Source: a virus (Duplodnaviria; Heunggongvirae; Uroviricota; Caudoviricetes). Taken from it: 5,893 nt of DNA. The position numbers were made by a program, and so were the translations under genes. The DNA is taken from IMG/VR virus record IMGVR_UViG_2534682175_000012; one strand, written 5' to 3'. The notes under the pieces are model-generated. The model ran no database searches. It was not told where the DNA came from and worked only from the letters and a program-made list of their open reading frames with translations. Every line of letters starts with the position of its first letter. Position 1 is the first letter of the stretch. Positions 1,419 through 3,890 of the stretch are shown in pieces.

Positions 1419-3890
1419 TTAAAAATCAGCCTGACTCGGGATCAGTTTTTGCCAGATAGCTGAAACGTATTTTGCCTGGTAACGAGCGTCATCAAGTGCA
1501 TTATGGCGCTCACCTTCGAATGGGATAGCAGTTCTGGCATCGAAGTCTATGGCTTTCCCCAGCTCAACGATTGTGCGTACATCGCGATCGTTGTAGTAAC
1601 GCCACGGGCAGGGGATCCCCTGCCGCTCGTATGAACGGCGCAAAATAGTGTTGTCGAAGTTGGCTCCATTTCCCCAGACCTGAACAAAAAATTCACCGGA
1701 GTTTTCGTCGATAAATTCCCGCAATTGTAACAGTGCATCATCTAACGGGATTTCATCGGTCATAATGGCAGATTGCGCTTCGCGTGATTGTTTAAGCCAC
1801 CATTTAATGGTGTCCCGATCAATGACTCCGCCAGCAGTTTCCAGATCGATAGTCTTACTAAATTCCGGTCCCATATCTCCGGTTTGCGGATCGAAAAATA
1901 TTGCACCTATTGAGATGATCGGGGCATCAGGATTTTTTCCCATGGTTTCAAGGTCGATCATTAGATGGTCACACGTCCTGCTGGTGGATGTGATTTCGTG
2001 ATGACCGTTCACCTTAATTGGGTGATCTGCCGTCTCGCCAGTTTCATTATCGCTATTGTGATGCTGATTGCCGCCAGTGTTCTCCTTGTGTGGATGTTCA
2101 GCGCCTTCCATTTCCTCCGGATCATCTTCCTGAACTTCAACCTGATACTCTTCATCGAATGTTTCTTGGTATGTTGCGTCGCCCATCACCGCGCCACAAT
2201 CAGGGCAGTTGCCGCCGCCGGTCTGACCGCAAGCGGTGCAGGCTTTTTCCGGTTCCTGTTGCACTACTGGTTCAGGTTGTTTCGTTTCTGGCTCGTTTTG
2301 TTGCGTATTTTGGCTGTTTTGTTCCGCTTTCTGGTCGTTCTGTTCCGTTTCTTGCTGGTTCTGGTTCGCAGAATCGCGGGTCTGGATCCCCTTAACCCAT
2401 TTCGGATCATTCGGGTCGCTAATCCCTTCAACAAATTCACCACGTGATACTGCAAGCAGTTCATCGGCGTCAGGCTGGCTGATATTGGCTGCCTGCATAA
2501 TTTTGTTTACTTCGTCAGCGGTAACTTTTACCGGTTCTGGCTGTGCGGTCGTGTCAGATGCACCAGTATTTTGTTGTGAACCTGAGTATGTACTGTTTTT
2601 GCGGGCGAAATATTCTTCTTTCGTGATTTCAGTAGCCCCGGCAGCCAGCGCCTTATCCAGACCAGAAAGTTTGTTTGCGCGACCGTATTTTTCTCCGTCC
2701 TTATCGGCGAAGAGGAAATAGAACGGCCCCTCACGCTCTACAGATGGTTCAGCTTCCGGCGCGGTTTCATTTTTTGGGATATCAGATACCTCAGTTTCCA
2801 CTGCATCAGTTTGTGTTTCTGATGACTGGAGAACATCAACAGTGCTCTGATTTGTTCCTTCATCTTCAAACACGCCCTTTGTAGTCAGGTATTCAGTAAT
2901 GTATTTGTTCAGTGCCACAGGATCTTTGTGAATGTCGATCGGACGCTCACGGACAAGGCCAAAAATAGTTTGGCGGTCGTAGCGAAGGGCATCAGGCTGT
3001 TTGCGCATTGATGCCGAGATACGCTTCCAGTCTTCGCGGTCGTTGTCGATAACTTCATTTTTTGCCCAGCGATGGATGCTGCCGTCAATGTTTCCGGCAT
3101 CCACATCACCAGGCCAGAGAGCGTAGGCCAGTTCGTCATCCAGTGTTTTCCATGTCTGCTTGTATTCGCGATGAATGACTGCAGTGACAGGGGAGATATT
3201 TTCTGCTGAGTTTTCAGTGTGCTGTCGGTTGACTCTGGCGCGGGCGAGATCAACAGCAGACGTGTATTTTCCGGTTTCCTTGCGTTCACCTTCGCGACGT
3301 TTTTTCCAGATGCGCATCTCTGCCTGAATTTCGGGCCATTTAGCTCCAGGCTTACATTTATGCTTAACCCACCCGATGGCATGCAACTTAAGTTCTGGAT
3401 ACATGGCGTTAACTTCTGGCATTTTCATCAACGCTTCAACGATATGTCCGTCGAATGTTGCCATGTCTTCCTGCAACAATTCCTGCGCGCTAATCACCAT
3501 ATCAACGGTGATGTTTTCACATGTGTCGAACTTAACCATGACAGCGTTCTGTACTTCAGGGGCCAGCTTGTCAAAAGTGACGTTCATCGGATCTGATTCA
3601 GTCTCAACCGGGACAAAGGAAGCAGACTCCTCATCCCAGCGGTTTTCCTGCATATATTCAGCATCCCAGGAATCGAGGGCAGGGCGGGGTATACCGGGTT
3701 TATCCTCGCAAACAAGAAATTTATAAGCGCAGTCCTGAGCAGCCGGATAATGCTCCAGGAATTGCCAGTGAAATTTTGCGCGGGCGCGACGTTCATCACC
3801 GGCTTCAATGGCAGTGGCTACAGCGACTGCACCTTCTTCCTTTATTGCCTGTTCGTCCGGAATGGCGGCGCAAATAAAGACTTTACTCAT
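1419..3890 (-). CDS. Large multidomain prophage protein: N-terminal domain of unknown function, Q/N/E-rich linker, Cys4 zinc ribbon, C-terminal DEDDh (DnaQ/SbcB-like) 3'-5' exonuclease domain
   Basis: Uninterrupted 823-codon ORF, ATG at 3890-3888 with GAGG about 10 nt upstream. C-terminal motifs seen in the translation: Exo I MIDLET (D646, E648; nt about 1947-1955), Exo II GNGANFD (D746; nt 1653-1655), Exo III [10 protein letters not shown] (H796, D801; nt 1488-1505). Cys4 cluster [16 protein letters not shown] (res 551-566; nt 2193-2240). Low-complexity [33 protein letters not shown] (res 507-548). His-rich stretch at res 598-631. Sits directly upstream of xis, where lambdoid phages keep recombination/exonuclease genes. 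A relationship to RecE-like 'exodeoxyribonuclease VIII' proteins is suspected from memory only. Confidence 0.85.
   Translation of the reverse strand: [823 protein letters not shown]
2247..2372 (-). repeat. Degenerate short tandem repeats encoding the Q/N/E-rich low-complexity linker of the 823-aa protein
   Basis: The plus strand at 2270-2370 is built from reiterated GTTTTGTT / TTCTGG / GTTCCG blocks (for example ctgttttgttccgctttctgg, then cgttctgttccgtttcttgctgg). Translation is [33 protein letters not shown]. Confidence 0.5.

Follow-up and report, generated by a model that had tools for sequence, protein, structure and literature searches.

An intact ydfE gene of lambdoid Escherichia coli phages encodes a DexA-like DEDDh exonuclease domain on a scaffold partly shared with RecE

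The stretch of phage DNA analyzed here (IMG/VR record IMGVR_UViG_2534682175_000012, Caudoviricetes; 5,893 nucleotides, hereafter the window) contains an intact open reading frame (ORF) of 823 amino acids (aa) at 1419..3890 on the minus strand, with an ATG start codon preceded by GAGGT. This gene is the intact form of the Qin gene ydfE and encodes a modular early-left-operon protein of Qin/mEp460-type lambdoid E. coli phages. On the evidence of sequence comparison and structural modelling, the C-terminal 185 residues are a DEDDh exonuclease domain whose closest characterized relative is DexA of phage T4, and part of the long non-catalytic region in front of it is common with RecE of the Rac prophage. 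We propose, with a probability of about 0.55, that the protein is a DNA 3'-end-processing or degrading nuclease of lytic development, expressed early, and not a two-component recombinase of the RecET/Red type. The exact protein is deposited as WP_001609894.1 ('exonuclease [Escherichia coli]'), its 90%-identity cluster contains 23,183 sequences, and it matches phrog_2082 ('exonuclease') end to end (1-823 of 823).

The original prediction, made from the sequence without database searches, assigned the C-terminus to the DEDDh class and not to the PD-(D/E)XK nucleases, and this proved correct. As expected, profile search placed residues 642-813 in Pfam PF16473, 'Rv2179c-like 3'-5' exoribonuclease' (E 1.5e-67, 227.2 bits against a cut-off of 27), the match covering model positions 2-177 of 177. 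The motifs were located at aa 644-649 (MIDLET), 740-746 (GNGANFD) and 795-804. In an alignment of eight sequences (T4 DexA and seven enterobacterial homologues), D646 and E648 (DxE of Exo I), D746 (Exo II), H796 and D801 (Hx4D of Exo III) were all invariant. DexA (8KEL/8KEN) was the sole significant sequence relative in the Protein Data Bank (PDB), with the single sequence (E 1.5e-6) as well as with a profile of the domain (E 4e-15), and the profile search returned no RNase-type member at E up to 1. Structure prediction led to the same family: an AlphaFold2 (AF2) model of aa 346-823 reached a predicted local distance difference test (pLDDT) of 70-92 across aa 638-820, and its top Foldseek matches, all with probability 1.00, were DexA (8kel), RNase T, a DnaQ domain and oligoribonucleases (Orn), with REXO2 as a further structural neighbour.

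Exonucleases of the DEDDh superfamily degrade their substrates from 3' to 5'. By analogy, the five catalytic residues would bind two metal ions and take nucleotides singly from a free 3'-OH, in the 3' to 5' direction, a polarity that would be opposite to that of RecE and lambda Exo. The substrate would be DNA, since the domain is close to DexA and far from the RNase-type members. The window protein and DexA share their Pfam family and all five DEDDh residues, and DexA is the best structural match; however, identity is 28%, and DexA is a free-standing protein of 227 aa with extra loops, from a virulent phage with modified DNA. Also, DexA W152 aligns with Y766, and D169 falls in a DexA insertion that is a gap in the window protein, so that the proposed readers of 5-hydroxymethylcytosine (5hmC) are not conserved. 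A second homologue to be considered is EcD ('HREX') of E. coli, for which cleavage of 5hmC-DNA has been reported and which protects E. coli against T4 when carried on a plasmid (PMC12153337). EcD is a different and apparently free-standing protein, as its cloning primers give MIDTET... and ...TIPETYD; a 17-mer scan of genome contigs for it returned 99 matches, none of them in E. coli and roughly the number estimated by chance. In a loop where the alignment is uncertain, DexA D90, an Asp that forms the tetramer, aligns with D718 (the Asp is kept here and is Ala in EcD) and S87 with P715.

Upstream of the nuclease domain, BLASTP aligned aa 262-627 with residues 278-592 of K-12 Rac RecE (E 9e-64), and identity in the linker was 75-90% in 40-aa windows. 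Residues ~470-510 had been noted as possibly RecE-like; they do lie within this alignment, but the first 257 residues are not RecE-like, and aa 1-256 are instead 95% identical to YdfE of K-12 Qin. The homology stops at ...ETGE(T/V)AD.P.I.V (RecE 592), just ahead of the DEDDh domain; beyond that point RecE runs through EDIEPGIYYG... into its own nuclease and the window protein diverges. Published work gives the RecE nuclease domain as residues 564-866, with the PD-(D/E)XK part at 602-866, and describes an N-terminus 'of unknown function' that is dispensable for basic recombination and stimulatory for linear-linear recombination (PMC11611040). The NCBIfam RecE equivalog NF007259 matched aa 244-623 only (model positions 269-600 of 877) with 279.8 bits against a cut-off of 1269, well short of a full-length RecE. 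Pfam detected in the 823-aa protein neither PF12684 (PD-(D/E)XK) nor PF06630 (Exonuc_VIII), which Rac RecE carries at aa 615-850 and at its N-terminus, respectively. The idea of a RecE-scaffold protein with a swapped catalytic domain is thus supported, the scaffold being common up to the start of the RecE nuclease domain. Rac RecE (exonuclease VIII, 866 aa) and the window protein occupy the same operon slot of lambdoid prophages and have in common the mid1 sub-domain, the linker with its conserved motif, the Cys4 ribbon and the acidic/His-rich tail (Table 1). The following gene differs: it is recT after recE and xis after the window gene.

Relatives 81-97% identical to the window protein carry PF27430 (YdfE_N) and PF27432 (YdfE_C), and the 90% cluster representative (P0241) pairs with a protein (P0130) that has both. 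K-12 ydfE (pseudogene b1577) lies in the same neighbourhood, namely ydfC, dicF, dicB, ydfD, ydfE and then int, but there IS2 cuts the gene after codon 256 and everything downstream, including the nuclease domain, is lost. The two Pfam families are named after this IS2-truncated pseudogene product (L004:5079-5999), and the name YdfE hides that the intact members are nuclease or putative annealase fusions of 700-980 aa.

The non-catalytic part had been described as a single N-terminal domain of ~500 aa. It resolves instead into three folded sub-domains that together span aa 1-345, the first two specific to YdfE and the third common with RecE, followed by a small folded domain at aa 387-436 and by a long stretch with predicted disorder. 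The AF2 model of aa 1-345 had a mean pLDDT of 86.6 but a predicted template modelling score (pTM) of 0.37, and the YdfE_N part (first 256 aa) gave no informative match to known folds. In the second model, aa 437-637 are predicted to be disordered, including the RecE-like linker and the Cys4 motif. A probe made from mid1 matched both the YdfE_N and the RecE_N classes, and the mid2 probe found the domain of aa 387-436 in the YdfE_N class regardless of the C-terminal cassette. The linker motif (RGEFVxGISDPxDPKW) is kept even in members that are 46-49% identical. The Cys4 motif, a putative zinc ribbon, and the His-rich segment that had been predicted are present, at aa 551-565 and with 7 His in aa 599-631; the Cys4 motif is missing from some family members (P0242, P0260, P0367).

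Table 1. Features of the ydfE-type gene, its protein and the neighbouring genes in the window.
Feature	Position in window	Strand	Basis or remark
Whole gene, 823-aa 'exonuclease'	1419..3890	-	ORF; phrog_2082; counterpart of K-12 Qin pseudogene ydfE
aa 1-97, N-terminal alpha/beta sub-domain, part of YdfE_N (PF27430)	3600..3890	-	
aa 105-205, helical sub-domain of YdfE_N	3276..3578	-	AF2; phrog_5943 matches aa 1-257
aa 245-340, helical sub-domain 'mid1', common with RecE family (Pfam YdfE_C on relatives)	2871..3158	-	BLASTP to RecE 278-340; AF2 pLDDT ~94
aa 387-436, small folded domain (GPFYFLF...), 'mid2'	2583..2732	-	AF2 pLDDT 74-84; dN/dS 0.05; mid2 probe
aa 466-637, linker common with Rac RecE, mostly predicted disordered	1980..2495	-	75-90% identity; AF2 pLDDT <50
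aa 483-498, best-conserved linear motif of linker	2397..2444	-	consensus RGExxxGISDPxDPKW in alignments A3 and A4
aa 551-565, Cys4 motif, putative zinc ribbon	2196..2240	-	conserved in Rac RecE; AF2 pLDDT ~51
aa 599-631, 7 His; end of acidic/His-rich linker part (aa 571-637)	1998..2096	-	common with RecE up to RecE aa 592
aa 642-813, DEDDh (DnaQ-fold) exonuclease domain, DexA/Rv2179c family	1452..1967	-	PF16473
Catalytic codons	D646 1953-1955; E648 1947-1949; D746 1653-1655; H796 1503-1505; D801 1488-1490	-	alignment with DexA
Excisionase (xis), 52 nt downstream of gene	1088..1366	-	PF07825, phrog_629
Lambda-type tyrosine integrase (int), 372 aa	1..1119	-	PF09003, PF00589
ydfD homologue (DUF1482), directly upstream, 63 aa	3983..4174	-	PF07358; K-12 layout; translation
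dicB, cell-division inhibitor, 62 aa	4171..4359	-	PF05358 and NF049927, match to aa 36-97 of listed ORF
DicF antisense small RNA (sRNA)	4534..4585	-	Rfam RF00039, 76.7 bits vs gathering score 48
124-aa ORF, between ydfC-like ORF and DicF	5132-5506	-	phrog_6937; no Pfam match
ydfC-like 72-aa ORF	5529-5747	-	phrog_1744

The architecture belongs to a modular family. An exhaustive HMMER search of 1.84 billion cluster representatives, with aa 1-630 as the query, returned only 250 clusters at E up to 0.001; the 53 long ones among them were probed with domain queries, and ten of these were checked against Pfam. The N-terminus of these proteins is either YdfE_N or the Exonuc_VIII domain of RecE, the middle (mid1 and linker) is shared, and at least four types of C-terminal cassettes are found on the two N-termini. 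The DEDDh C-terminus is present in the window protein, P0242, P0248, P0257, P0260 and P0367, and the PD-(D/E)XK C-terminus in Rac RecE, P0250, P0316, P0354, P0359, P0324, P0371 and others. All four pairings of two N-termini with two nucleases exist. YdfE_N is joined to PD-(D/E)XK in P0250, P0316 and P0354, and the converse, a RecE N-terminus with a DEDDh domain, occurs in P0248; relatives with the same scaffold and the RecE-type catalytic domain, for which a BLAST comparison had been proposed, do therefore exist. Over aa 1-360, P0248 has 100% identity to Rac RecE; over aa 601-805 (the last ~200 aa) it matches the window DEDDh cassette at 97-100% identity, and the changeover is located within the linker that both have in common. 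The linker DNA of the window gene is itself 85.6% identical to recE of phage Rac-SA53. These comparisons show that the catalytic module can be exchanged as a cassette, the switch being made within the common linker; homologous recombination at this place is a plausible mechanism because of both the position of the P0248 changeover and the DNA identity to recE. The exoD gene of K-12 DLP12, considered as a relative, showed no similarity.

Two further C-terminal types were observed. The third one, of ~300 aa, is attached to the YdfE_N scaffold, has the invariant motif KKSLTDAxKKALSxLGFSADVxLGLYD and includes P0249, P0255, P0256, P0273, P0285, P0300, gp07 of Pectobacterium phage ZF40 (L005:4974-7139) and a protein of Stenotrophomonas phage BUCT708 (L006:4974-7106), among others. 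It is annotated as 'exonuclease' (phrog_2489, phrog_7838) yet has no nuclease motifs. Its motif gave sub-threshold matches to Pfam Rad52_Rad22 in six of eight members (best E 0.003), and hhalign placed it, not significantly (E 0.5), on Sak of the lactococcal phage ul36. The cassette may be an annealase fused to the scaffold; a Rad52/Sak-like identity is not established by such sub-threshold and non-significant matches. In both ZF40 and BUCT708 the gene is followed by a Sipho_Gp157 gene. The fourth type (P0245, P0252, P0278; L015-L017) ends in ...QQLTIAALHGLCANPA... (phrog_26058) and contains no recognizable nuclease or annealase; therefore, the scaffold also exists without any catalytic cassette. 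This gene lies directly upstream of small ORFs, then xis/int.

The type of nuclease cassette co-varies with the presence of an annealase gene. Representatives were taken from different 50%-identity clusters, giving 11 independent loci. A recT gene lies directly downstream in 5 of the 6 PD-(D/E)XK forms (Rac, P0250, P0316, P0324, P0371) and in none of the 5 DEDDh forms (window, P0248, P0260, P0367, P0242), which lead straight into xis or int (Fisher exact p ~0.013). In IMG/VR, recT is absent within 6 kb of all 80 DEDDh loci and present at 79 of 80 Rac-type loci, these loci being near-clonal and not independent. The annealase thus goes with the PD-(D/E)XK cassette and not with the scaffold. In the Rac-like prophage of P0248, the DEDDh cassette replaces the recE 3' end, recT, ralR and rcbA of Rac. 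The absence of a bet, recT or erf gene next to the window gene, noted at the outset, holds on inspection, and no annealase is annotated in the non-structural half of the complete phage Tritos either, whose early-left operon consists of three small ORFs, DicF, dicB, ydfD, the DEDDh gene, xis and int. The gene resembles lambda Exo/Beta and other SynExo pairs in its early-left operon position and in encoding a nuclease for DNA ends. It differs from them by its fold, which is DEDDh and not PD-(D/E)XK, by the opposite polarity expected of it, by the lack of an adjacent annealing-protein gene and by its long non-catalytic scaffold. At the exceptional PD-(D/E)XK locus, P0359 of a Salmonella-type prophage, a 271-aa phrog_3657 protein (L181:7565-8380) takes the place of recT after the RecE_N + PD-(D/E)XK gene, and may be an unrecognized annealase.

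The gene is widespread and intact. It was present at >=80% coverage in 3537 of 5426 complete E. coli genomes (65%), where the median number of copies was 2 and the maximum 10, with a best nucleotide identity to the window of 96.6%. Full-length copies were found in 17 phage records, among them those of PPompW prophages of enterohemorrhagic E. coli (EHEC) and of five phages that have been isolated (Tritos, HannyBb, PhiR42_1, mEp460_ev081 and Evi). The ORF was intact, with 822-830 aa, in 82 of 82 sampled loci. The ratio of nonsynonymous to synonymous substitution rates (dN/dS), obtained by comparing the window with an allele, was 0.04 in aa 1-100, 0.05 in aa 387-436 and 0.07 in the DEDDh domain, against 0.75 in the disordered aa 346-386. 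Judged from these sequence data, the folded domains are under purifying selection and the gene is functional.

As expected, the gene lies directly upstream of xis, with xis and int following on the same strand. It also shares its strand with DicF, dicB and ydfD, from which it is separated by short gaps, and consensus-like sites for a promoter or terminator of its own were not above shuffled controls. Both this finding and the order of the genes lead us to infer that, on induction or infection, one transcript from the repressor-controlled early-left promoter covers the gene together with dicF, dicB and ydfD.

Thus, the proposal that we favour is the following. On induction or infection the gene would be expressed early, together with dicF, dicB and ydfD. 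The nuclease would, like DexA, trim 3' tails and degrade DNA fragments, and it would do so without a phage annealase, which is why we do not regard it as a RecET/Red-type recombinase. The shared scaffold would provide targeting or assembly independently of nuclease polarity. Several points weigh against this proposal. The co-variation with the annealase rests on just 11 independent loci. The reported defence of E. coli against T4 by EcD (PMC12153337) favours another role. The Pfam family PF16473 is named after an RNase (Rv2179c), so that the substrate may be RNA. RecA depends on 3' tails, which a 3'-5' exonuclease destroys, and a positive role in recombination is therefore not obvious. The scaffold also carries non-nuclease C-termini (P0245 type) and might thus serve some purpose other than nuclease targeting. 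Finally, our literature search, which left out most subscription journals, retrieved no functional study of ydfE and no biochemical or genetic data for the protein or its close relatives.

A broader hypothesis, which we put forward tentatively, is that the RecE/YdfE N-terminus and linker serve as a platform of general use, directed at DNA ends or at a host factor whatever the nuclease polarity, onto which lambdoid phages plug alternative effectors: a 5'-3' PD-(D/E)XK nuclease with RecT, a 3'-5' DEDDh nuclease, possibly a Rad52-like annealase, or a non-nuclease tail. The DEDDh version, the commonest one in E. coli, would then be an end-degrading weapon against competitors or host defence and not a recombinase, with 3' tails, free DNA of superinfecting phages, retron-type single-stranded DNA or RecA substrates as its targets. 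If true, this would explain the purpose of the long 'dispensable' N-terminus of RecE. An anti-defence role may also be considered.

The main rival of the proposed lytic role is that the protein serves as a prophage exclusion or defence nuclease, EcD-like, which would degrade the DNA of superinfecting phages (e.g., the 5hmC-DNA of T-even phages) and spare that of the host. We find this rather unlikely. The gene is indeed extremely common in E. coli prophages, cryptic ones included, and its neighbour dicB belongs to an operon for which effects on phage exclusion have been reported. The protein also shares with the T4-protective EcD its Pfam family and its closest solved relative, DexA (PMC12153337). 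However, the primers of EcD identify it as another protein, W152 is replaced by Y766 and D169 lies in a gap, and the Asp that appears to correspond to D90, lost in EcD, is kept here (D718). No PADLOC defence model matched the protein or its neighbours. The gene also lies inside an operon that should be silent in lysogens, promoter-like sites are no more numerous than in the controls, and the K-12 copy is a pseudogene.

It is unlikely, too, that the protein acts as a recombination exonuclease in a pathway that uses host RecA or another partner, trimming non-homologous 3' ends or flaps and functionally replacing RecET. Such a role would agree with its place at the recE position, with the replacement of the recE 3' end, recT, ralR and rcbA in the Rac-like prophage, and with a scaffold common to RecE and to the cassette that bears the sub-threshold Rad52-like motif. 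For DexA itself, the T4 record names replication and the degradation of host DNA as processes in which it takes part, and a part in intron homing is also stated (PMC12153337). On the other side, an annealase was linked in 0 of 5 independent DEDDh loci and the expected polarity destroys 3' tails. This explanation otherwise largely overlaps the one that we prefer, and differs from it only in claiming a positive role in recombination.

A 3'-5' exonuclease acting on RNA appears quite improbable, whether its targets were phage or host transcripts (e.g., in the processing of the dicF/early-left transcript or the turnover of int mRNA) or the linear oligonucleotides that defence signalling produces. 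The name of PF16473 comes from a mycobacterial exoribonuclease, RNase T, Orn and REXO2 are among the structural neighbours, and the gene stands between an sRNA-producing operon and xis/int. Nevertheless, the PDB profile found DexA alone, a DNA exonuclease, and in other family members a DNA nuclease takes the place of this cassette on the scaffold. Cyclic signalling nucleotides, for their part, have no free 3' end, which DEDDh-class exonucleases need. Last, a decaying and functionless recE remnant of defective prophages, as the IS2-cut K-12 copy, an ISVsa5 insertion and a three-ORF split version might suggest, is very improbable and is contradicted by the 82 intact ORFs, the strong purifying selection in the folded domains, the retention of all catalytic residues and the presence of the gene in plaque-forming phages.

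The protein is annotated as 'exonuclease', as '3'-5' exonuclease', as '3'-5' exoribonuclease domain-containing protein' and often, which is misleading, as 'exodeoxyribonuclease VIII'. This is among the commonest genes of E. coli prophages, and the last label implies a RecE chemistry that the protein cannot have. Once the protein is seen to join a DexA-type 3'-5' cassette to a RecE-like linker, this annotation is corrected and the K-12 pseudogene ydfE explained. As the original prediction held, the C-terminus falls in the DEDDh superfamily; the architecture is common (65% of complete E. coli genomes) and generically annotated, and no functional study of it was found among the publications searched. 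Neither building block is new, and their combination is already catalogued in PHROGs, RefSeq and Pfam (YdfE_N, YdfE_C, PF16473), while the same search yielded no account of the exchange of RecE and DEDDh cassettes or of the link between cassette and recT. The family also amounts to a natural experiment on the N-terminal two-thirds of RecE, in which the scaffold is kept while nuclease polarity and annealase partner are swapped, and hybrids that occur in nature, such as P0248, could be used directly in recombineering assays.

Disrupted copies of the gene were also encountered. In E. coli O169:H41 strain 2014EL-1345-2 (H31, H72), it is interrupted by the IS4-like element ISVsa5. In one E. coli prophage (L007:737-3127), three successive ORFs (456, 157 and 183 aa) stand in its place, and the third begins at the Met of MIDLET. 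Because of this start, many E. coli proteins of 180-183 aa that are annotated as a complete '3'-5' exonuclease' (P0032, P0039, P0065) may be fragments of disrupted long genes and not free-standing enzymes.

Regarding the neighbouring genes, the mechanically listed ORFs of ydfD (81 aa, 3983-4228) and dicB (97 aa, 4171-4464), both on the minus strand, are too long. The real starts are M19 of the former and M36 of the latter, and the profile matches begin at residues 22 and 36, respectively; the resulting K-12-like genes overlap by 4 nt. The DicF layout is the same as in K-12 Qin (ydfC, dicF, dicB, ydfD, ydfE). The position of the phrog_6937 ORF is occupied in K-12 Qin by non-coding sequence only, which makes it an extra early-left gene of the window. 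A 184-aa ORF on the plus strand (4588-5142), opposite the dicF region, has no family match and is probably spurious.

Free-standing PF16473 exonucleases of 189-190 aa (e.g., P0102, P0117, P0119) occur in enterobacterial prophages. They are 58-60% identical to the C-terminal domain and likewise lie directly upstream of xis/int, but have no scaffold. One of them, of 189 aa and 58% identical to the C-terminal domain, was found upstream of xis/int in a Salmonella prophage beside a NEL-effector gene (L010:4703-6570). This gene overlaps the stop codon of the gene for a 432-aa protein with a PF04447 dATP/dGTP pyrophosphohydrolase domain, a possible pairing of the nuclease with nucleotide metabolism.

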